Sequence record: OR352946.1
DNA: 64,000 nt
Strand: one strand, 5' to 3'
Source of the DNA: Escherichia phage AV116
The notes below the pieces were generated by a model. The model ran no database searches, was not told where the DNA came from, and worked only from the letters and a program-made list of their open reading frames with translations. The position numbers and the translations under genes are program-made. Below are positions 1 to 54,035 of this stretch, in pieces (within the stretch, counting starts at the first letter, position 1; every line of letters begins with the position of its first letter).

Positions 1-2317
<2,317 letters not shown>

Positions 2318-2344
2318 AAATAAAGCAAATTAAGAGGAATTAAA

Positions 2345-4327
2345 ATGGCACTTCTCTCTCCGGGCGTTGAGCTCAAAGAAACTACCGTACAGAGTACTGT
2401 AGTTAATAACTCCACTGGTACTGCTGCCCTGGCTGGAAAATTCCAATGGGGACCTGCATTCCAGATTAAACAAATCACTGATGAAGTTGCATTGGTTGAT
2501 ATGTTTGGTACTCCTAATACGGATACAGCAGATTATTTCATGTCTGCTATGAACTTCCTTCAATATGGTAATGACCTTCGTGTCGTACGCGCAGTTGATC
2601 GTGATACTGCTAAGAACTCATCTCCTGTGGCAGGCAATATTGAATTCACAATCTCTGCTACTGGTAGTAACTATGCGGTTGGTGATAAAATTATCGTTAA
2701 GTATTTGACCGAAACTGTTGAAGCAGATGGTTATGTCACTTCAGTTGATGTCGATGGTAAAATTCTTAACATTTATATCCCAACCGGTAAAATTATTGCT
2801 CGTGCAAAAGAAATTAATGAATATCCGGCATTGGGTTCTAACTGGACCGCCGAAGTTGCCAGTTCTTCTTCTGGACTTTCTGGCGTTATTACAATTGGTT
2901 CTATCGTAACTGATTCGGGTATTCTGTTAACTGAAGTTGAAACTTCTGAAGAAGCTATTACTTCTCTAACTTTCCAAGAATCTATTAAAAAATATGGTGT
3001 CCCAGGCGTAGTTGCTCTTTATCCTGGTGAACTTGGCGACCAGCTCGAAATTGAAATCGTATCTAAAGCAGACTATGACAAAGGTGCTTCAGCCCAGTTA
3101 AAAATTTATCCTGATGGTGGTACTCGTGCATCTACTGCTAAAGCAATCTTTGGGTATGGCCCACAAACTGATGACCAATATGCAATTATCGTTCGTCGTA
3201 ACGATGCTGTAGTTCAGAGCGTAGTTCTTTCTACTAAACGCGGTGAACGAGATATTTATGGTAGTAATATCTTTATTGATGATTTCTTTGCTAAAGGCGC
3301 AAGCAATTATATTTTCGCTACTGCACAAGGTTGGCCAAAAGGTTTCTCTGGCGTAATCAAACTGGGTGGCGGCTTATCATCTAATGAAACTGTTGACGCT
3401 GGTGATTTAATGGAAGCTTGGGATTTGTTTGCTGACCGCGAATCTGTTAATGCGCAGTTGTTTATTGCCGGTTCTTGTGCAGGTGAATCTTTAGAAGTTG
3501 CTTCTACAGTTCAGAAACATGTTGTAGCAATTGGTGATTCTCGCCAAGATTGCTTGGTTCTTTGCTCACCGCCACGTGCAACTATAGTCGGTATTCCTGT
3601 TAATCGTGCAGTTGATAATCTGGTTGATTGGCGTACTGCGTCAGGAACTTACACTGATAATAACTTTAATGTAAGTTCTACTTATGCCGCTATTGACGGT
3701 AACTATAAATATCAATATGACAAATATAATGATGTGAATCGTTGGGTTCCATTAGCTGCTGATATTGCTGGTCTTTGTGCTCGCACAGACAATATTTCTC
3801 AGCCTTGGATGTCTCCTGCCGGTTATAACCGTGGACAAATTCTTAACGTTATTAAGCTTGCAATTGAAACTCGCCAAGCGCAGCGTGATCGTTTGTACCA
3901 GGAAGCTATTAACCCTGTTACTGGTACCGGTGGTGATGGGTATGTTCTGTACGGTGATAAAACTGCCACTTCTGTTCCTTCACCATTTGACCGTATTAAC
4001 GTTCGTCGTTTGTTCAATATGGTTAAAACGAACATTGGTTCAGCATCCAAATATCGCCTGTTTGAATTGAACAACGCATTTACCCGTTCTTCTTTCCGTA
4101 CAGAGACTTCTCAATATCTACAGGGTATTAAAGCTCTCGGTGGTGTATATAACTTTAAAGTTGTTTGTGATACTACCAATAACACCCCAGCAGTTATCGA
4201 CCGTAATGAATTTGTAGCTACTTTCTACTTACAACCTGCAAGATCGATAAATTATATTACGTTGAACTTTGTAGCAACAGCAACGGGTGCCGATTTCGAC
4301 GAACTAATTGGTGCTGTAGGTGCCTAA
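2345..4327 (+). CDS. 18: tail sheath protein gp18
   Basis: 660 aa, position after terminase and before tail tube; T4 gp18-like sequence. Confidence 0.95.
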   Translation: MALLSPGVELKETTVQSTVVNNSTGTAALAGKFQWGPAFQIKQITDEVALVDMFGTPNTDTADYFMSAMNFLQYGNDLRVVRAVDRDTAKNSSPVAGNIEFTISATGSNYAVGDKIIVKYLTETVEADGYVTSVDVDGKILNIYIPTGKIIARAKEINEYPALGSNWTAEVASSSSGLSGVITIGSIVTDSGILLTEVETSEEAITSLTFQESIKKYGVPGVVALYPGELGDQLEIEIVSKADYDKGASAQLKIYPDGGTRASTAKAIFGYGPQTDDQYAIIVRRNDAVVQSVVLSTKRGERDIYGSNIFIDDFFAKGASNYIFATAQGWPKGFSGVIKLGGGLSSNETVDAGDLMEAWDLFADRESVNAQLFIAGSCAGESLEVASTVQKHVVAIGDSRQDCLVLCSPPRATIVGIPVNRAVDNLVDWRTASGTYTDNNFNVSSTYAAIDGNYKYQYDKYNDVNRWVPLAADIAGLCARTDNISQPWMSPAGYNRGQILNVIKLAIETRQAQRDRLYQEAINPVTGTGGDGYVLYGDKTATSVPSPFDRINVRRLFNMVKTNIGSASKYRLFELNNAFTRSSFRTETSQYLQGIKALGGVYNFKVVCDTTNNTPAVIDRNEFVATFYLQPARSINYITLNFVATATGADFDELIGAVGA

Positions 4328-10350: not shown

Positions 10351-10380
10351 GGGAGACTCCGGTCTCCCATTCTTGTTTCT
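10351..10380 (+). terminator. intrinsic terminator after gene 23
   Basis: hairpin GGGAGAC-TCCG-GTCTCCC (10351-10368) followed by T-rich ATTCTTGTTTCT. Confidence 0.7.
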
Positions 10381-11038
10381 ATAGCTTAAAACAATCATCG
10401 CGTTCATTAATCCAATTTCTTATAGTTTTTGCGGATACGTTAAAGAATTCGGCAGCGTAATCGTAGTGGTTAAATTCATGGCCTTTAATAGAAATATCCA
10501 CAAATACAAATTTCTTACCTTTATTAGAATTCTTTCTAATTTTTGCTTTATGCTCTTCTGATAGTTTTCTACCTTTAAGATGAGAATCTCTATTTTTATA
10601 AAACTTTTTATTTGCTATAGATTTGTTTTCTCGATGTTCTTTAGATTCTTTAGAACCTAATTTCTTTTTAGATATTTTGGCCCGAACTTCTTCAGTCATA
10701 CCAGCTTTTGTCTTTTCGGATAACATCTCACGATACCCAGGTTCCTGTAAAGCTACTATAACAGGATTACCCTTGCCGCCTAAGGCTGCATTATAAGTAT
10801 CTGTTCTCATGACAAAAGCCTCGTCAACTAGTTCGGCTTCCTTAGCATACATCTCTTCAGATGTTTCGAAATTGAAAAGGATTTCCTTTTTAAAATTCTC
10901 TAAGCCGTATTTCTTTATGGATTTTACTATGTTAACCCCGGAACCCATATAAGAATCGTTAACATCTGTGGTGGCATGGGCTCCAACATAAATCTTGTTA
11001 TTAATGAGATTGGTTATTTTGTAAATTAAATAATTCAT
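10379..11038 (-). CDS. segD: GIY-YIG homing endonuclease (Seg-like, segD position)
   Basis: 219 aa; N-terminal YKITN..KIYVGAH GIY-YIG-type motif and basic K/S-rich C-terminal DNA-binding region; lies between genes 23 and 24 as T4 segD does; symbol by position only. Confidence 0.75.
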   Translation of the reverse strand: MNYLIYKITNLINNKIYVGAHATTDVNDSYMGSGVNIVKSIKKYGLENFKKEILFNFETSEEMYAKEAELVDEAFVMRTDTYNAALGGKGNPVIVALQEPGYREMLSEKTKAGMTEEVRAKISKKKLGSKESKEHRENKSIANKKFYKNRDSHLKGRKLSEEHKAKIRKNSNKGKKFVFVDISIKGHEFNHYDYAAEFFNVSAKTIRNWINERDDCFKL

Positions 11039-13840: not shown

Positions 13841-13951
13841 TTAGAACTTGATTTCTATCCAATGACCATCACGCTGGTCGTGATTAATTTTGTACTGAAA
13901 GCCGTTATCACGAAGCCATTGACCGACTTGTTCAGTTATAGTTAAAATCAT
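13841..13951 (-). CDS. small ORF (36 aa from ATG), possibly 3' part of a split gene
   Basis: track ORF begins at GTG 14035; first ATG gives MILTITEQ...; overlaps the upstream 53-aa ORF out of frame. Confidence 0.3.
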   Translation of the reverse strand: MILTITEQVGQWLRDNGFQYKINHDQRDGHWIEIKF

Positions 13952-14093
13952 TCTTTGACGGATAATATGTAAATTGTGTCTGGCCTTTGTCAGCGGCTTT
14001 CTCTGCCATCGCAGAGAAGTTAGTAATAAAATCACTCAACAAATTAGCTTTAGTGGCCAGAGCCCTTTCTCTTAATTCCTGTGCAAAACTCAT
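13932..14093 (-). CDS. small ORF (53 aa), possibly 5' part of a split gene
   Basis: ATG overlaps the stop of the upstream ORF (ATGA); MSFAQELRERALATK...; below the track length cutoff. Confidence 0.35.
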   Translation of the reverse strand: MSFAQELRERALATKANLLSDFITNFSAMAEKAADKGQTQFTYYPSKNDFNYN

Positions 14094-18017: not shown

Positions 18018-18024
18018 TTAAAAA

Positions 18025-41849: not shown

Positions 41850-42352
41850 TTAGAAATATTTTTTGTATGAATTGATTACATTTTGGTCTACATCATTATC
41901 AATTTGTGCGACAAGATAAGAACTGATTTCAACTTCCTGAGGAGCTGCTTGAACTAAATCAGAGTTCAGATATTCACGAATCCAAGGATAAGGATGTTTG
42001 GTCGGAGCATCAGTAATTGGACACGGCAAACCACACTGTTTCATACGAGACACAGTCAAGTAATCAACAAAAGCACACATACTCTGTGTATTGATACCTG
42101 GACATGTACCGTCTTTAAAGAGGTGTGCAGCCCATTCCTTCTCTTGACTATTTACTTCCATAAAAATGTCAACTGCTTCTTGTTCACATTCTTTAGCAAT
42201 TTGAACCCACTCATCACCATCAGTACCGGATTGAAGTTGACGGATAATGTACTGAGTACCCTTGAGATGGAGTTGTTCGTCACGAGCAATGAACTTCATA
42301 ATCTTTGCATTGCCTTCCATAATTTCCATATTCTTATGGAAATTAAATGTAC
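41850..42352 (-). CDS. nrdB: ribonucleotide reductase small subunit NrdB, exon 2
   Basis: exon begins GT-ACA-TTT (completing codon TGT Cys with the last T of exon 1) giving ...YVSFA-C-TFNFHKNMEIMEGNAK, like the recalled E. coli ...[21 protein letters not shown]; boundary inferred. Confidence 0.75.
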
Positions 42353-42944
42353 CGTTATGTTCGATTGAGCTCGCTAATTCTCAACCCGTTCTCTTATGAA
42401 CTGCTGCATATTACTATGCAGACCAGACTATATCACAATCCCGGAGGGATTCTCCCCATTTCGAGTCGCTTGACCCTACGTCCGAAGACTAGTCGTTGAA
42501 CCTTGCTTTGCAATTGTCGCCGTGCCATCGTTTATATGTCGATGGTGATAAATCTTTCTTTTCACAATATGGACAATTCAATTGAATTCTATTTGGATTT
42601 AATTTGCATCTGTCATTATGTTTTAGATAAAACCCAGGACCTTTACCAATGTGACCGCAGAAATCACATGTGATTTCTTTTTGTGCAGGATGGGTTCCGT
42701 TCTTAACCATTTCTAATGTTTTTGCTGATGTTCTTCCATCAGAATCTTTAGGTATAGGCCCGTTAGCATCCATCCAAATTTTTCTATAATTCAATTGTGC
42801 ATCCTCTTAAAAGTATAATCATATTTATTTTATAATATACTAATTAAAGGTGCAAGCAAAACCTTGGCTGCTAGTTTTCCTATAAAGGACTTTCCAGCAA
42901 TTAAAGGAGTTTTCGATAAACGTTACCGTTTAAAGGCGCATTTT
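42353..42944 (-). mobile_element. group I intron in nrdB (about 592 nt)
   Basis: interrupts the NrdB frame; 3' core shares GACUAUAUC and GGGUCAAG-GACUCGAAA-type elements with the td intron; ends ...AACAUAACG; carries a short ORF. Confidence 0.75.
42489..42794 (-). CDS. intron-encoded zinc-finger ORF, probable truncated homing endonuclease (I-TevIII-like)
   Basis: 101 aa with CxxC...CxxC pairs (CDFCGH, CPYCEKK); too short for an intact HNH endonuclease. Confidence 0.45.
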   Translation of the reverse strand: MNYRKIWMDANGPIPKDSDGRTSAKTLEMVKNGTHPAQKEITCDFCGHIGKGPGFYLKHNDRCKLNPNRIQLNCPYCEKKDLSPSTYKRWHGDNCKARFND

Positions 42945-43620
42945 ACGCAAAAGATACATAAAAACGAATAGCTTCCAATGCATTGATGACATGCAAACAA
43001 AGATAAAGAGATTTCATTAGGTCTCGTTTAGCTTCGGTCTCTTGTTTAATAGCTCGGTTTAAACGAAGGTCGGCATCAGGAGATTCTTTAGCTTGTTCTA
43101 CAAATTCTTTAGCATTTTCCCAATTACGAGTCTTGACTAGAACATCATCATAATATTTACCTATTGATTCAGCTCGTTTCATGATTGCTTCGTCTAATAC
43201 AATCTCATCAAATACTTTGGATGGATCGGTATAAAGATTTCGCATAATATGAGTATACGAACGAGAGTGAATAGTTTCACTGAATGTCCATGTTGCAACC
43301 CACGTATCTAATGAAGGGTCGGAAAGCAGTGCCATAAGTACCGCAGATGGGGCCCTGCCTTGGATAGAATCTAATAATGATTGATACTTAAGGTTGTTTG
43401 TAAAGATGTCCTGTTGGAACTGAGGAAGCTTATTGAACTGGGCCGAATCCAGCATCAGGTTTACTTCTTCTGGTCGCCAGAAAAACGACAATTGCTTTTC
43501 AATAAGTTCTTCAAAAACTTTATGTCGCTGAATATCATAACGTGCGAGGCCAAGACCAGAACCAAAGAACATTGGTTCATTCAAAACATCGACTTGTTGT
43601 GTGTTAAAAACTGTACTCAT
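42945..43620 (-). CDS. nrdB: ribonucleotide reductase small subunit NrdB, exon 1
   Basis: 225 codons plus 1 nt; frame runs into a stop 1 codon after ...IRFYVSFA at the intron junction. Confidence 0.8.
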
Positions 43621-43675
43621 TATATTTTCTCACTTAGTTATTAACTCATCCATGAGTAAATTATAATCAAAAGTC

Positions 43676-45940
43676 TTAAAGCTTACAAGCAGAACAATCT
43701 TCAGCTTTAGGTGTTTCTAATTCATAGTCATCTGTACCTGACCCATCACGAGTGTTATGATAGTAGAGGTTTTTTCCGCCAAAGTACCAGAAGTAAAGCA
43801 GATCGTCAAGCATTACTGACATTGGCACTTTACCTTTCTCAAATACTGCAGGGTCATAGTAAGTATTAGCAGAAGCAGATTGGCACACCCATTTCAACAT
43901 GATAGCAACTTGGGTCAAATAAGGTTTATTACCTTTCTTAGCAAGTTTCCACGCGTAGTCGTAAAGACTCATGTTATGTTCTATATTAGGAACAACCTGT
44001 CGGAAGTTGCCTTCTTTAGATTCTTTAATACTTACAGGTCCACGAGGTGGTTCTATACCATTTGTGCTATTTGAGACTTGACTGCTTGACTCACAAGGCA
44101 TGAGTGCAGACAACGTTGAGTTACGAATTCCATGTTCTTTGAGTTCAGCTCGAAGTTCTTCCCAGTCACAGACATAGTTCGGGGCTGCGATTTGGTCAAT
44201 CTTTTTATTGTACCAGTCGATAGGTAATTCGCCTCTAGACCATTTAGTGTCTGAATAATACTCACAAGGTCCTTTTTCTTTGGCGAGTTTGATTGATGCT
44301 TTGATAAGGCCATATTGCAATCTCTCGAACAATTCATGGGTCAAATCGTTAGCGTCTTCATATGAAGCAAAGTTAGAAGCTAACCATGCAGCATAGTTCG
44401 TCACACCAACACCGAGATTTCGACGCTTTTTAGCTTTTAAAGCTTCTGGAACCGGATAATCTTGATAGTCTAACAGGTTATCAAGTGCACGTACTTGTAC
44501 TTCAGCAAGTTCATTAATTTTATCTTGGTCTTGCCAATCAAATTTATCTAATACAAAAGCAGATAATGTGCATAAACCAATTTCAGCATCAGGACCATTC
44601 ACATCATTAGTTGGAATAGCGATTTCACAACATAAGTTACTCTGACGAATTGGAGCTTTTTCACGAATAAACGGAGTGTAGTTATTCGTGTTATCAACAA
44701 ACTGTGGATAAATTCGAGCAGTGCCAGAACGTTCAGTCATGAACAATTCAAAGAGTTCTAGTGCTTTGATTCTTTTCTTTCTGATTGTTGGGTCTTTTTC
44801 AGCTTTCTCATAAAGCTCACGGAATTTATCTTGATCTTCAAAGAACGAGTAGTATAGTTCACCTGACATTTCGTGAGGGCTAAATAAAGTAATATAATCA
44901 TTTTTACCAAGGCGTTCCATCATAAGGTCATTAATCTGAATTCCGTAGTCCATATGTCGAATACGGTTTTCATCCACGCCTTTGTTATTTTTCAGAACTA
45001 ATAGGTTCTCTACTTCTAAGTGCCACATCGGATAATACGCTGTAGCAGCACCACCACGAATACCACCTTGAGAACAAGATTTTACTGCAGTTTGGAAATG
45101 TTTCCAGAATGGAATAACACCTGTATGTCGAACTTCACCCGTACCGATCTTAGAACCTTCTGCACGAAGCATACCAACGTTGATACCGATACCAGCTCGT
45201 TTAGAAATATATTCAATAATTGATGCTGAAGTTTTGTTAATAGATTTTAACGAATCACCTGCTTCAATAACTACACAACTAGAGAACTGGCGAGTTGGAG
45301 TACGAGCACCTGCCATAATTGGGGTTGGCAATGAAACTTGATGAGTAGAAACGGCATCATAAAAACGAATAATATGTTTCAAACGGTCATGAGTTTCGTC
45401 TTGGTGTAAGGCCATGCCAATAGCCATGATAGCAAACTGGGGAGTTTCATAAATCTTCCCAGTTGTTTTATCTTTAACTAGATATTTTTCTTTAAGCTGC
45501 ATAGCACCAGCATAAGTCAGGTCAAAGTCTCGTTCATGTTTAATCTGTGAATCGAGATAAATGATTTCTTCTGCTGAATATTGAGACAACAGCTCAGGGT
45601 CATATTTGCCTTCATTAACACAGTAAGAAATATGGTCTATAAAAGCAGGCGGTTCAAACTGCCCATATACATCTTTACGAAGTGCAAACATTAGCCCTTT
45701 GGCGGCGACATACTGATAATCAGGTTCTTCGACAGAAATCAAGTTAGCTGCAACTTTAATACAAATCTTCTGAATATCTTTGGTGCTCATCCCGTCGACA
45801 AGATGGGTCTTAATTTCTTCATACAATTCGTATGGGTCGATTTGTGTTCCTTCACACTGCCAAGTTAATACTTGAATAATTTTCTGTGCATCAAAATTTT
45901 GGGATACACCTGAATTTTTCACTACTTTAAAATTATACAT
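43676..45940 (-). CDS. nrdA: ribonucleotide reductase large subunit NrdA
   Basis: 754 aa; active-site region NLCCEIA; T4 NrdA size. Confidence 0.95.
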   Translation of the reverse strand: MYNFKVVKNSGVSQNFDAQKIIQVLTWQCEGTQIDPYELYEEIKTHLVDGMSTKDIQKICIKVAANLISVEEPDYQYVAAKGLMFALRKDVYGQFEPPAFIDHISYCVNEGKYDPELLSQYSAEEIIYLDSQIKHERDFDLTYAGAMQLKEKYLVKDKTTGKIYETPQFAIMAIGMALHQDETHDRLKHIIRFYDAVSTHQVSLPTPIMAGARTPTRQFSSCVVIEAGDSLKSINKTSASIIEYISKRAGIGINVGMLRAEGSKIGTGEVRHTGVIPFWKHFQTAVKSCSQGGIRGGAATAYYPMWHLEVENLLVLKNNKGVDENRIRHMDYGIQINDLMMERLGKNDYITLFSPHEMSGELYYSFFEDQDKFRELYEKAEKDPTIRKKRIKALELFELFMTERSGTARIYPQFVDNTNNYTPFIREKAPIRQSNLCCEIAIPTNDVNGPDAEIGLCTLSAFVLDKFDWQDQDKINELAEVQVRALDNLLDYQDYPVPEALKAKKRRNLGVGVTNYAAWLASNFASYEDANDLTHELFERLQYGLIKASIKLAKEKGPCEYYSDTKWSRGELPIDWYNKKIDQIAAPNYVCDWEELRAELKEHGIRNSTLSALMPCESSSQVSNSTNGIEPPRGPVSIKESKEGNFRQVVPNIEHNMSLYDYAWKLAKKGNKPYLTQVAIMLKWVCQSASANTYYDPAVFEKGKVPMSVMLDDLLYFWYFGGKNLYYHNTRDGSGTDDYELETPKAEDCSACKL

Positions 45941-46580
45941 AATAATTCCATGTTGGATAATTTGATGATTTTAGACGGCGTCTAACCGTTTGGGTGCTCA
46001 TAGATAAAATTATTGACGCTTCATTTAATGTATCATATATTACGTCGTTTATAATTACTTTCTTTGCAAATGGATTCTTAGCTCCTATCATAGCGTTAGA
46101 AATAGCTTGCTTAGTTGATTCTTTTAATGGGACTCCTTTAGAAATTTTTGTTTTAATTTTTATATTGTATTGTCCGCGTTTTTTACCTAATAAAGAATTT
46201 CGTATCTTTTCTTTAGTCTCTTCAGATTTAACATGTCCTAGTTTGGAACGAGATATTTTATCTTTTGTTTTTTGGTCTAATTTTCGCCCTTTAAGCAAAT
46301 CAACCATTTTTGCTCTAGCCCATCCAAATTCTTTATTATTTCTAGAACTCATTAAATTAACCGCGGTTGCTAAACCTAAATTGTTCGGATATATTTTTAA
46401 TAAAAGAAGATGAGCCAAATAATGTTCTGAATATGTTAATTTAACTAGATTGTATGACTCATTGGTGCCACCTAAACATTTTGGGATTATATGATGCCAT
46501 TCACCATCGATATCTTCAAAATTTCTTTCTTTATTTACTAAGTTTTTATATATTTTTAAATAATCCATAGTATAATCCAC
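45933..46580 (-). CDS. free-standing HNH homing endonuclease (Mob-like)
   Basis: HNH motif EWHHIIPKCLGGTNESYNLVKLTYSEHYLAH; first ATG at 46568 gives 211 aa; 8-nt overlap with nrdA start. Confidence 0.75.
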   Translation of the reverse strand: MDYTMDYLKIYKNLVNKERNFEDIDGEWHHIIPKCLGGTNESYNLVKLTYSEHYLAHLLLLKIYPNNLGLATAVNLMSSRNNKEFGWARAKMVDLLKGRKLDQKTKDKISRSKLGHVKSEETKEKIRNSLLGKKRGQYNIKIKTKISKGVPLKESTKQAISNAMIGAKNPFAKKVIINDVIYDTLNEASIILSMSTQTVRRRLKSSNYPTWNYYV

Positions 46581-46643
46581 TTTGTAGTATCAACGGGATA
46601 GTATTTATCCCGTTAATTTATTATACACTTTTAAACTGAAGCG

Positions 46644-46898
46644 TTAATTATCCTCAGCAATAATTTCTTCGTATTCTTTAGGTGTCAAGACCGTGATATT
46701 GAAATAAACCAACGGTTCTTTTTCCACACCGTAACCACCACAGAATTCACGATATTCATAAATTCGTTCATGTGAATAACAAATGAATCGTTCACCTTTA
46801 ACTATGATTTCACTATTCGGTGAAGGGATATCTAGTTCGGTAGGATTTTTCATTTCAAAAATTGTGGTGCCATATGAATTAATAAAACGTAAAATCAT
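46644..46898 (-). CDS. hypothetical protein (84 aa)
   Basis: ORF between td exon 2 and the HNH gene. Confidence 0.5.
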   Translation of the reverse strand: MILRFINSYGTTIFEMKNPTELDIPSPNSEIIVKGERFICYSHERIYEYREFCGGYGVEKEPLVYFNITVLTPKEYEEIIAEDN

Positions 46899-46899
46899 T

Positions 46900-47211
46900 T
46901 TATACCGCCATTTTAGCTTTGATAGCTGGATGTGATTCGTAATTTTTAAGAACGAAATCAGAATGTGTCATCGTTCCGGTAACCCAGTCCATTTGGATTT
47001 TTGTAGGCCAATTCTCAAAATTACTAGGCCAATTAATTTCAAGAGAACATAACTCTTTAGGTTCACGACGAAGAACTTCTTTGCATTGTTCTACATGATT
47101 GCTGTAGATATGCGTGTTGCCGCCTGAGAACACTAAATCACCTGGGATAAGGTTACACATCTTCGCTACAATATGTGTCAAGGCAGCGTACGAGGCGATG
47201 TTGAACGGTAG
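46900..47211 (-). CDS. td: thymidylate synthase Td, exon 2
   Basis: exon begins CUACCGUUCAA as in T4; the ATG of the track ORF is the last 3 nt of the intron; encodes LPFNIASYAALTH... Confidence 0.9.
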   Translation of the reverse strand, partial: LPFNIASYAALTHIVAKMCNLIPGDLVFSGGNTHIYSNHVEQCKEVLRREPKELCSLEINWPSNFENWPTKIQMDWVTGTMTHSDFVLKNYESHPAIKAKMAV

Positions 47212-48227
47212 CATTATGTTCAGATAAGGTCGTTAATCTTATCCCGGAATTATATCCAGCTGCATGTCACCATGCAGAGCAGACTATATCTCCAACTTGT
47301 TAAAGCAAGTTGTCTATCGTTTCGAGTCACTTGACCCTACTCCCTAAAGGGATAGTCGTTAGGCATTTATGTAGAACCAATTCCACTTATCAGATTTTAC
47401 ACGGTAAGTAACTAATCCTGATGAAATTTCAAAATGTCTAGCCGCATCGGCTGCACATTCAAAAATAATCCCATCGCATGAAATCTTTTTGATGTTAGCT
47501 GGCTTTTTGCCTTTCATCTTTTCAGATAGTTTAGTTTTAGTTTTTTCTGAATGTTTGTGATTAAAGAACGGGTTATTTTCACCTGAACGTTTTCGGCACT
47601 TTCCACAAGTATCGGCCGAAGATGGTATGCGAACACCGCATTTACAAAACTTGTGGTTTTCTGGATTCCATCGGCCATTTTTACTTCCGTGTTTACCATA
47701 AAGAGCTTTCCGACCATCAGGACCAAGCTTAAGCATCTTAGCTTTAACAGTTTCAGCTCGTTTCTTAGCAATTTCTTCTTTTAATGGATGATTTGAAAGC
47801 ACATCGCCAAAAGACGCATCAGCAATATTATATCCATTAATTTTAGAATTTAGCTCTTTAATCCAAAAATTTTCTCGTTCAATAATCAAATCTTTCTCAT
47901 ATGGAATTTCTTCCAGTATAGAGCATTCAAAAACATTACCATGTTTATTAAAAGACCTTTGAAATTTTATAGAAGAGTGAACACCGTTTTCAAGGTCTTT
48001 AAAATGTCTCTTCCATCTTTTCTCAAAATCTTTAGCACTTCCAACATACACTTTACCGTTTAAAGTGTTTTTAATCTGATAAATTCCGCTTTTCATAAAC
48101 ACCTCTTTTTATATAGAAGTATTTATTAAAGGGTAGTCCTACAATTTAGCACGGGATTGTCTACTAGAGAGGTCCCCCGTTTAGATAGATTACAAGTATA
48201 AGTCACCTTATACCTAGGCCTAAATTA
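47212..48227 (-). mobile_element. group I intron in td (1016 nt)
   Basis: 5' end UAAUUUAGGCCUAGGUAUAAGGUGACUUAUACUUGUAAUCUAUCUAAACGGGG and 3' end ...CUGAACAUAAUG match the T4 td intron as I recall it; length 1016 nt as in T4. Confidence 0.9.
47359..48096 (-). CDS. intron-encoded GIY-YIG homing endonuclease I-TevI
   Basis: 245 aa from ATG (MKSGIYQIKNTLNGKVYVGSAKDFEKRW...), SD AAGAGGTG; track adds two codons from an upstream GTG. Confidence 0.9.
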   Translation of the reverse strand: MKSGIYQIKNTLNGKVYVGSAKDFEKRWKRHFKDLENGVHSSIKFQRSFNKHGNVFECSILEEIPYEKDLIIERENFWIKELNSKINGYNIADASFGDVLSNHPLKEEIAKKRAETVKAKMLKLGPDGRKALYGKHGSKNGRWNPENHKFCKCGVRIPSSADTCGKCRKRSGENNPFFNHKHSEKTKTKLSEKMKGKKPANIKKISCDGIIFECAADAARHFEISSGLVTYRVKSDKWNWFYINA

Positions 48228-48776
48228 ACCTAAGAAAACATCTACACTGCGTTGATACCATTGTAAATCAAGATGACCATTACGCACATTGAACTGATAG
48301 AACATATGGCAAGGAGGAAGAGCCATTTGATTTATTTCAGCCGGATTCCAGGCAGAAACAATTTGACGACGATCAGTTGGTAATTTTTTAATACGGTCGA
48401 TTGTTTCAACTAATTGGTCTACACCACCAAAATCACGCCATTGCTTACCATAAATAGGACCAAGTTCGCCGCTATGATATCCAAGGTCTTTTGCCTGATT
48501 TTCATAGTTGTCGTCCCAAATAGTTTTACCTTGAATAAGACTACCATGAGTACGAATACGCAAATCATTAACATTGGTAGAACCAGACATGAACCACAGT
48601 AACTCGGCAATACAAGCTTTCCATGCTAATTTCTTAGTTGTTACTGCAGGAAATCCTTTAGTAAGGTCCCAACGTAATTTAGTTCCGAACAGGGCAATAG
48701 TGCCGGTACCTGTACGGTCGTCTGTTTCGTAGCCATTTTCTAAGATATCTTTAATCAGGTATTGGTATTGTTTCAT
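48228..48776 (-). CDS. td: thymidylate synthase Td, exon 1
   Basis: 183 codons ending ...DVFLG at splice site CUUAGGU|UAAUUUAGG; active-site PCH motif present. Confidence 0.9.
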
Positions 48777-49360
48777 TTATATACGCTCTCAGTAATTTCG
48801 GTGAGTTCATCGATTCTGTAGTAATGAGATTCTACCATAGAACGTTGAAGCATAATATCTTGGACGAAATCTTTATCAAGTTGAACATCGGAATTAACAT
48901 GACATTTCTTAATGATTTTAGTCATCACGATTTCATCGGCATAAGGCAGTGCTTGTTTTAATAGAGCAGGGCCACCAATAATAGATACATCAACATGTTC
49001 AGTAGAAAGTTTAAACGGTACGTCAGTTGCAGGGCTAAACAGGTTAATTTCACCACCCGTTACCAAGGTAATAAATTCTGCTTGGGTGATATAGAACCGT
49101 GCAAGTTCGTTGGTTTTGGTCCTAGGCAGTTTTCTGGCCATATCAGTGACAACCACATGAGTACGATCCTGGAGTAGACGAGGTAATGATGCAAAAGTCT
49201 TAGCACCCATAACCATTACAGTGTTTTTAGTGCGAGCAACAAAGTTACTCATATCTTGTTTGATATGCTTCCATGGAAGTCCATCACCTAATCCAAAAGC
49301 ATATTCCAGTTTATCATCAACTGTTTTAGTCGGAGCGCATGCGAATACTAATTTAAGCAT
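48773..49360 (-). CDS. frd: dihydrofolate reductase Frd
   Basis: 195 aa; T4 DHFR-like blocks (FGLGDGLPW, VIGGPALL, LPYADE) and C-terminus ...TESVYK. Confidence 0.9.
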   Translation of the reverse strand: MLKLVFACAPTKTVDDKLEYAFGLGDGLPWKHIKQDMSNFVARTKNTVMVMGAKTFASLPRLLQDRTHVVVTDMARKLPRTKTNELARFYITQAEFITLVTGGEINLFSPATDVPFKLSTEHVDVSIIGGPALLKQALPYADEIVMTKIIKKCHVNSDVQLDKDFVQDIMLQRSMVESHYYRIDELTEITESVYK

Positions 49361-50180: not shown

Positions 50181-51080
50181 TTATAGACCAGCTAACAGGT
50201 CATCGAGGTCACCATCGTCAGAAGACGAGGAACTCATGAAGTCATCTTCAGTTTTTGCAGAACCAAAGGCTTCCATGTCTTTATCAAAATCGTCAAGGTC
50301 AGAAGCAACTTTATCTGCAACAGAAGCTGCTGCGGCTGCTGCACCACCAAGAGCGGCAGTACCAAGAACTTGATTAAATTTAGTATTCAATTCTTCAAAC
50401 GATTTGAACTTATCTTTAGAAGTCATTTCAGAAAGGTCGACCATTTGTTCGAACAATTCTTTCTGGAAAGATTCATCATCAATGTTTGGAATCGCAGATT
50501 GATTCAGGAATTTAGATTCGTCGTAGTTACTGAAACCAGAAACCTGTTTAACTTTCAGCACAAAGTTAGCACCTTCCCACGGGCAAGTTACATCAACAGG
50601 AGTTTCACCCATTTCAGTATCGACTGCAATCATTGCATTGATTTTGTCCCAAATCTTTTTACCGAAACGATATTTGAATACTTTACCTTCATTATCTGGA
50701 GCTTGAGGGTCTTTAACAACCAGAATATTAGCCCAATAAGAAGTTTTACGTTTCAGTTGAGAATATTCAGTTTTGTTGGTATTGTACAGGTCATTTTTAC
50801 TAATGTACTGACATACAGGACAAGAGTCATAATCGCCGTGTGTAGATGAACAGGTTTCAATATACCATTTACCATTTTTCTTGAACCCGTGGTTAACAAG
50901 AATTGTAAACGGAAGTGCGTCATCTGTTTTTGCCGGCAGGAAACGAATTACCGCTTGACCATTACCGGATGCATCGAGTTTCAGCTTCCATTCACCTTTA
51001 TCTTCTGAAGAGAAACCTTTGTTACCATTCAGTTTAGCCATCTGAGCTGCGAGGTCTGCGGTACTTTTACGTTTAAACAT
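50181..51080 (-). CDS. 32: single-stranded DNA-binding protein gp32
   Basis: 299 aa; zinc site with CPVC; acidic Ser/Asp-rich C-terminus; T4 gp32-like. Confidence 0.95.
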
Positions 51081-51160
51081 TTTATTTGCCTTTATTTAGA
51101 TTATTAATTAAATTTTACAGTTGGTTGCTACGACACTTATACCTCGTAGCTGGTATGATT
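51081..51160 (-). promoter_or_regulatory. gene 32 mRNA leader / translational operator
   Basis: AU-rich leader AAUUUAAUUAAUAAUCUAAAUAAAGGCAAAUAAA-AUG preceded by a GC-containing structured segment, as in the T4 gene 32 autoregulatory operator. Confidence 0.55.
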
Positions 51161-51168
51161 TATTTATA
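51161..51168 (-). promoter_or_regulatory. late promoter TATAAATA for gene 32 (minus strand)
   Basis: plus-strand TATTTATA about 80 nt upstream of the gene 32 ATG. Confidence 0.55.
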
Positions 51169-51197
51169 AAGTAATTTTAACACACAAGAAATAAAGC

Positions 51198-51851
51198 TTA
51201 ATACTTACATGATTTGATTGTTTCTATGAACAATTTCTTAGCAGCATTTCTATCGATTTGAAGTATTTTTCGATATGCCTTTAATTTGGTAGAATAATTT
51301 TGCCAGACTAAGTTATCGGTGAGTTCGTCGTGCTTATCTATAATATTCAAAAACGAGTCCAACAATAAGAAAGTCTCAAATGAAATTATATTGCTTTGTA
51401 GCAATTTGAATATGTAGCTCGACTGAACGTTGCTATTATAATCAAATATCTCTTGAAGCGCACTAACTTCAACTTTCTTACTGAAATAGTAGATGTTACG
51501 TACGTCTTCAGCAAACGTCTCCTTGGCTTGTTTGAGACGTCCAATATATTCCCTATAGAAAACTAATGCATCAGCGTCTGATATCTCACCAATCCATGCG
51601 TCTTGGTTAGCAACTAAGTTGCTTATGAATATCAAGGTGAGTTCCTTCAATTTATATTTCTCTGCTAGTTTTTCAAAGAAATATTTATCTCGGCGTTTTT
51701 GATACGCATTATCCGAAACACGCATGCACCAGTTATATTTGATTACGTCATACCGACCACCAAAGTGGTTTTTGCACATCAAGTATAGTTTATATACTGA
51801 TTTTCCATTAATATAACGTTCTCCGTCAGGAGGCATGCGTATTTTAATCAT
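51198..51851 (-). CDS. 59: helicase loader gp59
   Basis: 217 aa, T4 gp59 size and position upstream of gene 32. Confidence 0.9.
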   Translation of the reverse strand: MIKIRMPPDGERYINGKSVYKLYLMCKNHFGGRYDVIKYNWCMRVSDNAYQKRRDKYFFEKLAEKYKLKELTLIFISNLVANQDAWIGEISDADALVFYREYIGRLKQAKETFAEDVRNIYYFSKKVEVSALQEIFDYNSNVQSSYIFKLLQSNIISFETFLLLDSFLNIIDKHDELTDNLVWQNYSTKLKAYRKILQIDRNAAKKLFIETIKSCKY

Positions 51852-52528
51852 AGTTCCATCCAGGCCATTTTGAAGATTTAAGTCTATATGTAACTAAAGA
51901 CGCAGAAATATTAAAAACATTTGAAACTTCTTTACACGAGGCGTATTTTATACCATCAATAATTATAGGTTTTTGTTTTTTAATAGTTCTTTCTTTAGAA
52001 TGCGGCTTTGAATTTGCTATTCTAAGAGCTTCTTTGGTTGAATCAGGCATCGGCTTATTCGTTTTTCGCCCTTTTCGGACTTTACTCAAGGCCAATTTGT
52101 GAGCTTCAGATAGTTTCTTACCCTTATTAGGTGACGGTATTTTTCTTTCTAGTCTTGTTTTAGATACTTTAGCCTTAGTCTCTTCAGATCTAGGTTTACC
52201 TAATTTAGAAAGTGAAATAGGACCTTTTAGCTTCATCACTTTGTTTTTTACCAGGACCACCTTTACCACCGGGAACTAAGTTATAAGTATCATCTCGCAA
52301 AACAAAATCTTCATTAACCAATTCTGCTTCTTTTTTATAGGCGTCCTTGTCATTATCATATTCATAAAGAATTTCGGTATAAAAATTTTTTAGTCCATAT
52401 TTAGCTTTGGCCGCTAATATAGCGCGGCCTGATCCAATATACCAATCTTTCTCTTTATGTTTTTTGTGTACGCCTATATAAATTTTACCATTTATTTTAT
52501 TGGTAGTTTTATACACAACGTATTTCAT
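51844..52528 (-). pseudogene. Seg-like GIY-YIG homing endonuclease split by a frameshift at an A6 run
   Basis: N-terminal ORF (52205-52528, 107 aa) has GIY-YIG-like YKTTN..KIYIGVH; C-terminal ORF (51844-52269, 141 aa) has the K/S-rich DNA-binding region; frames overlap 65 nt around minus-strand A6 at 52244-52249. Confidence 0.6.
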
Positions 52529-52863
52529 AATAAGAAATCTAACGTATTAGTTTTTTCACCACGAGCAACTGATGGGCGAAGCATGTTTTCGTCAATTGCT
52601 TCGCTTGTAATTTTTTCAACAATTCCTGTAGGAATAAATTTAGCAAATTGTGTTTCTGGAATAGAATTTTCTTCCAAGAAAGCAGTTGTTGCTTCTAAAT
52701 AAGACATACCAAATTGTTCAACCATGGATTCGATAATGAATCCGTTTTCTTGTCGGTCAAGCAATTTAGCGATATCATCTTTATCGTGTTTTACTGCTAA
52801 TTCTTGTTCAGATAAACCGGCCTCATCAACCGGTTTAATATCACTTAGTGAAAACTGTGTCAT
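52525..52863 (-). CDS. 33: late transcription accessory protein gp33
   Basis: 112 aa, T4 gp33 size; MTQFSLSDIKPVDE... Confidence 0.85.
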   Translation of the reverse strand: MTQFSLSDIKPVDEAGLSEQELAVKHDKDDIAKLLDRQENGFIIESMVEQFGMSYLEATTAFLEENSIPETQFAKFIPTGIVEKITSEAIDENMLRPSVARGEKTNTLDFLL

Positions 52864-53110
52864 AAAGCTCGACTACCTCTTCGTTTTCAGCTTCAAATTG
52901 GTCACGAGCGTCTTTATGATAAAGAGCTAACAAACGATTAAACATTTTTCCATCGACGCCAAGCTCTTCTTTAGCACGAGTACGAATGTCTTTAATCAGT
53001 TCATTATAACCAGAAATTTTAAGTTTGTTATCGGAAGCTTCTTTGACTAGTTTAGCCAGTTCTTCACCATGCACATCTTGATTAAATTCAACTGCTTCTT
53101 TCTTAGCCAT
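52841..53110 (-). CDS. dsbA: dsDNA-binding protein DsbA
   Basis: 89 aa from ATG at 53110 with GAGGT SD overlapping the rnh stop; the track adds 6 codons. Confidence 0.7.
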   Translation of the reverse strand: MAKKEAVEFNQDVHGEELAKLVKEASDNKLKISGYNELIKDIRTRAKEELGVDGKMFNRLLALYHKDARDQFEAENEEVVELYDTVFTK

Positions 53111-53117
53111 GTTTACC

Positions 53118-54035
53118 TCAGAATTCATTAATTACACTTGTTAATTTAGAAAGACCAGATTTTACAAAGTATGAATAAATCTTGCCTTTAGGTTGTGGTT
53201 TATATGAGTTATAATACTCTATAATGGTTGAAGCAATATTATCAGGGATATAATCAAAATCAATGAGAACCAAATTTTCTTGATACCGTTTATATTCTTC
53301 TGCACTTAATAATACTTCAGCTTGAGAACGGTCATTAGCAATTGCTTCAATAATCGTTGTTTTCATGCTCGGAGTTCGTTCACCATCAACTCTGGTAAAC
53401 CAGAAGTCACCACGAACTCGAACAGATGCAACGCCGTCTTTACGGTCACCTTTAAGAATTTTAGTCATGCAATCAATTTCAGCAGAACCGTTCTTAATTT
53501 TAACCCATTTTTTCTGTGGTGGCGACCACTGTTTAACGTTAGGATATTTGTGTAATTGTGTAAAGTCACCATCTGATGCAACAATACATACCTTATGACC
53601 GGCTAATGACAAATATTTAGTTAATACACCGATATGGTCATCCGCTTCATACTTGTCAATATCCATTACAACGTATGGCATGTATTTCTTAATCTCATCA
53701 ACAACTTGATGGAGTGCAGTAAAATATCCTTCCCAATCCCACTTTGAAGCTTCACGATCGGTTTTACGATTTTTCTTGTAATAGTAAGCAAAATCACGTC
53801 GCCAATAACCTGAAGTAGCATTATCCATACACAATACAAATTTTGTATAGCCTTGCTTACGGAACATCACTACGTTTTTACGAATTGAATTCAAGATTAC
53901 ATGGCGAACCATCGGAACAGTAATTTTATCGCCGTCTTCAAAGTTGTTTAATGCGGCTGCCAATGCAATGTTACTAAAGTCGGCAAGTGCAATACCTTCT
54001 TTGTAATCTTCATCCAACATCATTTCTAAATCCAT
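53118..54035 (-). CDS. rnh: RNase H / 5'-3' flap exonuclease
   Basis: 305 aa, T4 Rnh size; FEN-like acidic motifs. Confidence 0.9.
   Translation of the reverse strand: MDLEMMLDEDYKEGIALADFSNIALAAALNNFEDGDKITVPMVRHVILNSIRKNVVMFRKQGYTKFVLCMDNATSGYWRRDFAYYYKKNRKTDREASKWDWEGYFTALHQVVDEIKKYMPYVVMDIDKYEADDHIGVLTKYLSLAGHKVCIVASDGDFTQLHKYPNVKQWSPPQKKWVKIKNGSAEIDCMTKILKGDRKDGVASVRVRGDFWFTRVDGERTPSMKTTIIEAIANDRSQAEVLLSAEEYKRYQENLVLIDFDYIPDNIASTIIEYYNSYKPQPKGKIYSYFVKSGLSKLTSVINEF

Follow-up and report, generated by a model that had tools for sequence, protein, structure and literature searches.

The two overlapping open reading frames between genes 33 and 59 of Escherichia phage AV116 are one free-standing GIY-YIG homing endonuclease gene with an I-TevI-like architecture, here called seg, which is split by a single extra C. 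We regard this base as probably a fresh mutation that has turned the gene into a pseudogene, and favour this reading over an assembly error. The analysis covered a stretch of 64,000 nucleotides from AV116 (record OR352946.1), hereafter called the window, and the coordinates of the features are collected in Table 1.

The window comes from a T-even-type phage of the genus Mosigvirus, and its nearest relatives are AV118 and G2469. AV118 (OR352948) is about 98.8-99.8% identical to the whole window over 60 kb and shares its first base, and at positions 51100-53200 the identity is 100.0%, with AV116 being longer by one base. The lengths of intergenic homopolymers differ from AV118 at positions 18020, 41373, 18928, 33493, and 14306, the differences being A7 to A10, T7 to T9, and several single-base changes. 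At the position of the split pair, AV118, SA79RD, and PHB12 are annotated with one intact gene of 684 nt, encoding 227 aa.

Table 1. Features of the seg region of AV116, in window coordinates
Feature	Position	Strand	Description or basis
rnh	53118-54035	-	
dsbA	52841-53128	-	
gene 33 (late transcription co-activator)	52525-52863	-	upstream neighbour of seg; PF16805
upstream junction	52525..52529	-	gene 33 stop TGA overlaps seg ATG (ATGA); left TATGA copy
split seg ORF pair	51844-52528	-	
ORF1, 107 aa	52528..52205	-	103 native residues, then YFTF out of frame; TAA stop at 52205-52207
ORF2, 141 aa	52269..51844	-	first 17 residues are the out-of-frame overlap; native from Ile104 (52218) to Asp227; stop at 51844-51846
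overlap open in both frames, 68 nt	52208..52275	-	contains the A6 run and AAA-AGG
A6 run	52244-52249	-	in frame and kept in 10/10 intact genes aligned; not the break site
lesion, one extra C	52220..52221	-	coding TCT to TCCT, plus-strand G to GG; codon 103/104; from alignments with intact genes and the list of indels relative to AV118
downstream junction	51844..51852	-	seg stop and gene 59 start overlap by 8 nt (ATGATTAA); right TATGA copy
gene 59 (helicase loader)	51198-51851	-	downstream neighbour of seg
gene 32	50181-51080	-	

Domain content and named relatives

The sequence-only reading had taken the two ORFs for the halves of a Seg-like protein located between genes 33 and 59, and our results agree with both the assignment and the location, as each half matches families of homing endonucleases and the two flanking genes were identified on either side (Table 1). 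The native part of ORF1 contains the complete GIY-YIG catalytic domain and the start of the linker. It matches the Pfam family SegE_GIY-YIG (E = 2.3e-5) and PHROG 314, "homing endonuclease" (9e-37), and the score for the GIY-YIG domain PF19835 was 25.0 bits, which is exactly the cutoff of 25. In ORF2, NUMOD3-type helices are found together with a DNA-binding helix-turn-helix of the I-TevI type. The ORF matches I-TevI_DNA-bd (PF20987; 3.6e-12, 46.4 bits, cutoff 27), PHROG 314 (5e-14), and, by sequence, the PDB entry 1i3j (E = 7e-4), with a weak match to NUMOD3 (0.014, 15.8 bits) that stays below the cutoff of 20.4. A match to TIGR01453, "group I intron endonuclease", spans the intact protein from end to end (73.9 bits, cutoff 56, 1.8e-20).

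The residues that are invariant among 39 homologues (Y6, Y17, G19, H21, E67, N83, G87, and G88) are all located within residues 1-90. An AlphaFold model, which was built on the 98%-identical homologue P0001 with the 39 homologues, has a mean pLDDT of 86 and a low-confidence linker, with values below 50 at residues 91-93. The best PDB matches of the model are the catalytic domain of I-TevI (1mk0), the DNA-binding domain of I-TevI (1i3j), and I-HmuI. The gene pair thus encodes both a GIY-YIG domain with its conserved residues and a C-terminal DNA-binding module, and an uninterrupted frame that joins them is found in 31/31 relatives but is lost in AV116 by the shift after codon 103.

I-TevI, which is encoded in the td intron of T4, has the same two-domain plan, with a fold match to 1mk0 at a target TM-score of 0.64, and its C-terminal helix-turn-helix is matched by the AV116 protein both in fold (1i3j) and in sequence (PF20987, as above). 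However, the identity to I-TevI is low, 21-25% in the fold alignments, and the AV116 gene is free-standing between genes 33 and 59 rather than intron-encoded. The zinc-finger element in the linker of I-TevI has no reported match in the AV116 protein, whose linker consists of NUMOD3-type helices.

Among named proteins, SegD and SegH are the nearest in sequence. With T4 SegD, the identity is 37.5% over residues 1-171 (E = 4e-25); with proteins annotated as SegH, it is 34-35% and extends over almost the whole protein (E = 4e-28 in the tblastn search, 3e-42 in the pairwise comparison). The insertion sites differ, as segD is located between genes 23 and 24 and the SegH-annotated copy in Salmonella phage KM16 between nrdD and nrdG. 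An orthologous relationship to SegH or SegD was rejected because of the 34-37% identity and the other insertion site, and the protein is instead considered a related paralogue, although one GenBank annotator has labelled the Mosigvirus gene as "SegH-like".

The sequence-only reading had placed segG of T4 between genes 59 and 32, in which the T4 record and Table 1 of PMC2988022 agree. SegG is also a free-standing GIY-YIG endonuclease, and its gene belongs to the same replication-gene cluster at a distance of one gene (PMC2988022), but SegG has no detectable sequence similarity to the AV116 protein (BLASTP E = 3.6). A SegG orthologue was rejected on this score and because the AV116 gene is inserted at 33/59 rather than 59/32. 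The suggestion that the two insertion sites are different was thus borne out, also by the Dhakavirus phage AnYang, which carries both elements.

The frameshift and its interpretation

In the alignment of AV116 with the intact genes, the sole length difference is GGTCCTATT in AV116 versus GGTCTATT or GGGCTATT in the intact genes. All 31 intact copies that were checked, from 28 GenBank records and three metagenome contigs, are 684 nt long, compared to 685 nt in AV116, and the three contigs, which are from ENA/Logan, encode the intact 227-aa protein in the same context. The inserted C is unique to AV116 among these otherwise intact copies, and the deletion of one C in silico yields exactly the AV118 protein. 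The frame shifts after Ser103, in the linker between the catalytic and the DNA-binding domains.

The break had earlier been placed at the A6 run in the overlap. This placement did not survive the comparison with the intact genes, as all 10 that were aligned keep the run in frame (Table 1), and the change from C to CC is located 23 nt 3' of it in the direction of the gene. Six A residues are ancestral here and keep the gene in frame. With five such runs in the intact AV118 gene, the run in the overlap does not stand out. While the loss of one A would restore a frame in a simulation, A5 is present in no relative, and because the lesion is located elsewhere, the proposed search of the reads for A5 or A7 was aimed at the wrong bases. 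For intact Mosigvirus copies at greater divergence, the ratio dN/dS was 0.07-0.10, which shows that the intact copies are under purifying selection and that their protein has been kept functional; it was 0.26 for the closest intact pair, which differ at 10 sites only.

The differences between AV116 and AV118 in the rest of the window bear on whether the extra base is real. In about 59 kb of mostly coding sequence, there are two coding frameshifts, both in small accessory genes (seg and 24.3), and none in any large or essential gene, while the rest of the small indels either fall between genes or occur as pairs in diverged stretches, where they leave the frame unchanged. Gene 24.3, which encodes 83 aa in AV118 and RB69, is split in AV116 (13841-14093, minus strand) by a change from T3 to T4 on the coding strand at around position 13944, resulting in ORFs at 13932-14093 and 13841-14035. 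Its span is 252 nt and intact in 151/151 related records versus 253 nt in AV116. The pattern of indels looks like variation filtered by selection, since random consensus errors would mostly strike large essential genes. The insertion in seg also turns one base into two, in a context with no long homopolymer, and Illumina consensus indel errors are rare outside long homopolymers. The AV phage series was sequenced on Illumina MiSeq 2x250 (PMC10844046), which favours a real mutation.

The opposite reading, in which the gene of the actual phage is intact at 684 nt and an error in the sequencing or in the assembly consensus has added the extra base, is on balance unlikely but far from negligible. 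The allele is unique among the 31 copies, and that one base is its only difference from the AV118 gene; no substitutions were found in seg relative to either AV118 or SA79RD, and the lack of any other difference from AV118 means that the lesion is either very recent or not real. The insertion in gene 24.3 is a second unique single-base insertion, and it could mean that the assembly contains indel errors at a low level. Nor was the frameshifted allele found in any independent source. Exact-sequence look-ups for the AV118 protein, for ORF1, and for ORF2 in two versions found none of them in the collection, and an exact-pattern scan of JGI metagenomes gave 0 matches for both alleles. A scan of IMG/VR with the intact protein recovered only relatives of at most 44% identity, none of which was both full-length and close. 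We nevertheless hold a fresh pseudogenising mutation to be the probable explanation.

Slippage-dependent expression had been another suggestion of the sequence-only reading. Any net loss of one nucleotide within the overlap that is open in both frames would give a 227-aa product, and two such events can be envisaged. The ribosome might slip by +1 at AAA-AGG, a Lys codon followed by the rarest Arg codon directly 5' of the inserted base, if the tRNA-Lys re-paired on the A4 run during the wait of the A site for the rare codon; the product would be a 227-aa protein in which RS is replaced by GP. Alternatively, one A might be lost from the A6 run in the mRNA by slippage of the RNA polymerase. Both events gave an open frame of 227 aa when simulated, AGG makes up 24 of the 718 Arg codons in the long ORFs of the window, and no tRNA gene is located within the AV116 window. 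If the allele were leaky in this way, a trickle of full-length, near-wild-type nuclease would be made, and the gene would be naturally attenuated rather than dead. However, 0/31 relatives are frameshifted or need recoding, and a shift that is conserved among relatives, as in programmed frameshifting, was thus found in none of them. AAA-AGG and the A6 run did not evolve for recoding, as both are also found in the intact genes, where the frame is unbroken, and A6 is short for RNA polymerase slippage. Moreover, inspection by eye revealed no Shine-Dalgarno-like sequence beside the site and no recognisable stimulatory element, and Rfam gave no match there. Read-through would be accidental and probably amount to a few per cent or less, and we consider partial restoration of the frame very improbable.

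It is still harder to credit that the split has created two functional polypeptides, namely a stand-alone catalytic domain and a separately initiated DNA-binding domain that might serve, for example, as a protector or repressor of the target site. The break does fall exactly between the folded domains, in the linker for which the model has low confidence (residues 91-93, pLDDT below 50), a GTG preceded by GGTGG is found at the start of ORF2, and the isolated DNA-binding domain of I-TevI binds DNA alone. Yet ORF2 has no convincing ribosome-binding site or ATG, and the arrangement occurs in one genome only, leaving no time for selection to shape it. In the annotation, the pair should be merged into one frameshifted (pseudo)gene whose lesion is placed at 52220/52221, rather than described as a homopolymer slippage site.

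Insertion site, mobility, and expression

The earlier proposal that seg moves as a free-standing element fits its presence and absence among related phages. The gene is a selfish element that is found at this junction in many RB69-like coliphages. Of 185 phage records that match the region, 28 contain the 684-nt gene, and the others align over the flanks only. The junction between genes 33 and 59 was aligned in 11 genomes with the homing endonuclease gene (HEG) and five genomes without it. The gene 33 stop and the gene 59 start overlap (ATGA) at the empty site in the five HEG-less genomes, and the others have a cassette of 676 nt inserted there precisely, with TATGA at both boundaries. The comparison of this junction in relatives, which the sequence-only reading had proposed, thus revealed what is expected of a HEG, namely a fixed site between conserved genes that is occupied only sporadically and is precisely empty in related phages. 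In the intact phages that carry the gene, the start of gene 59 is presumably coupled to the stop of seg. The seg start (ATGAAATACG) looks like the gene 59 start (ATGATTAAAATACG) when the regions 52515-52529 and 51838-51852 are compared, and this likeness, together with the TATGA repeat, might reflect microhomology at the original insertion. No fixed or strong association between the HEG and polymorphisms in the flanks, which could indicate a co-conversion tract, was found within about 700 nt on each side in the 11 genomes with and the five without the gene. This lack would be compatible with a target that is disrupted by the insertion itself.

A motif search identified no T4-type late promoter inside the gene, and matches resembling sigma-70 promoters or terminators were only modestly above, or at, the expectation from shuffled sequences. 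Rfam scans of the region and of the whole window gave no matches, and no Shine-Dalgarno sequence was evident by eye upstream of the seg ATG. Several seg and mob genes of T4 lack promoters, overlap the upstream ORF, and are translationally coupled (PMC2988022). By analogy with these, seg is presumably co-transcribed with rnh, dsbA, 33, and 59, and translated at a low level through stop/start coupling at the ATGA shared with gene 33.

During co-infection, the intact 227-aa enzyme would presumably cut genomes that lack the HEG, at the 33/59 junction or close to it, and the repair of the cut would then copy the gene into these genomes. In AV116, the main product would be a 107-aa catalytic domain that lacks the DNA-targeting module, since the insertion shifts the frame after Ser103. 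With the catalytic domain severed from this module, the AV116 enzyme is most likely dead. The lesion may represent the first step of decay in the usual cycle of HEGs, which invade, become fixed, and decay. Frameshifted HEGs are common in phages and are a documented stage of their life cycle (PMC10448857), and copies that have lost their function remain open to mobilisation in trans (PMC2790892). The cassette is still located at its site in AV116 and could be copied in trans by the intact enzyme of a co-infecting relative. The frameshifted HEGs of ICP1 and I-TevIII of T4 are similar in that an inactivated gene is kept at its site (PMC2790892, PMC10448857). However, I-TevIII carries a large deletion (PMC2988022), whereas the lesion in AV116 is a single base that is unique to one isolate.

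Homologues at the 33/59 junction and other endonuclease loci

Homologues are also located at the 33/59 junction in the Dhakavirus phage AnYang (56% identity), the Winklervirus phage CHI14 (52%), and the Enterobacter phage KMB20 (47%). One HEG lineage thus recurs at this junction in at least three genera of the Tevenvirinae (Mosigvirus, Dhakavirus, and Winklervirus) and in KMB20. In AnYang, gene 59 is flanked by the 33/59 HEG and by a SegG orthologue at 59/32 that is 59% identical to T4 SegG (1998-3962 of the sequence examined). As the 33/59 site adjoins the separate site of SegG, gene 59 has an independent homing site on each side.

In KMB20 (vB-EclM_KMB20, OL828291), only a C-terminal ORF of 132 aa has been called (1800-2399 of the sequence examined). 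A truncated copy was rejected, since tblastn shows that the whole frame is open, beginning with the ATGA shared with gene 33, and the short call is probably a mis-annotation of the start site and not a sign of decay. Another broken copy at 33/59 was found in a Logan contig from SRR33991139 (2001-3236), where the N-terminal 147 aa are in one frame and the C-terminal helix-turn-helix is in another frame, in which it is read as an extension at the N-terminus of the gene 59 product (246 aa versus 217 aa).

The gene in AV116 is an ordinary HEG, of a kind that dozens of records already list as a homing endonuclease, and the importance of the split extends little beyond annotation. With the intact gene in one and the broken gene in the other, AV118 and AV116, which are otherwise about 99% identical, would make a nearly isogenic pair that is well suited to measurements of homing and of marker exclusion around the replication-gene cluster.

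Other endonuclease loci were also observed in the window. An intact gene for a 219-aa GIY-YIG endonuclease is located between genes 23 and 24, at the position of segD in T4 (10379-11038, minus strand). It runs antisense to the late genes. In AV118, an ORF of only 89 aa is found at this position, and the segment 10382-11316 has no alignment to that genome. No group I introns were recovered by an Rfam scan of the whole window at the gathering thresholds. At approximately 41850-48800, nrdB and td are each split by inserts with endonuclease ORFs, of 94 aa and 245 aa, respectively, according to the AV118 annotation, which also places a further HEG next to nrdA.
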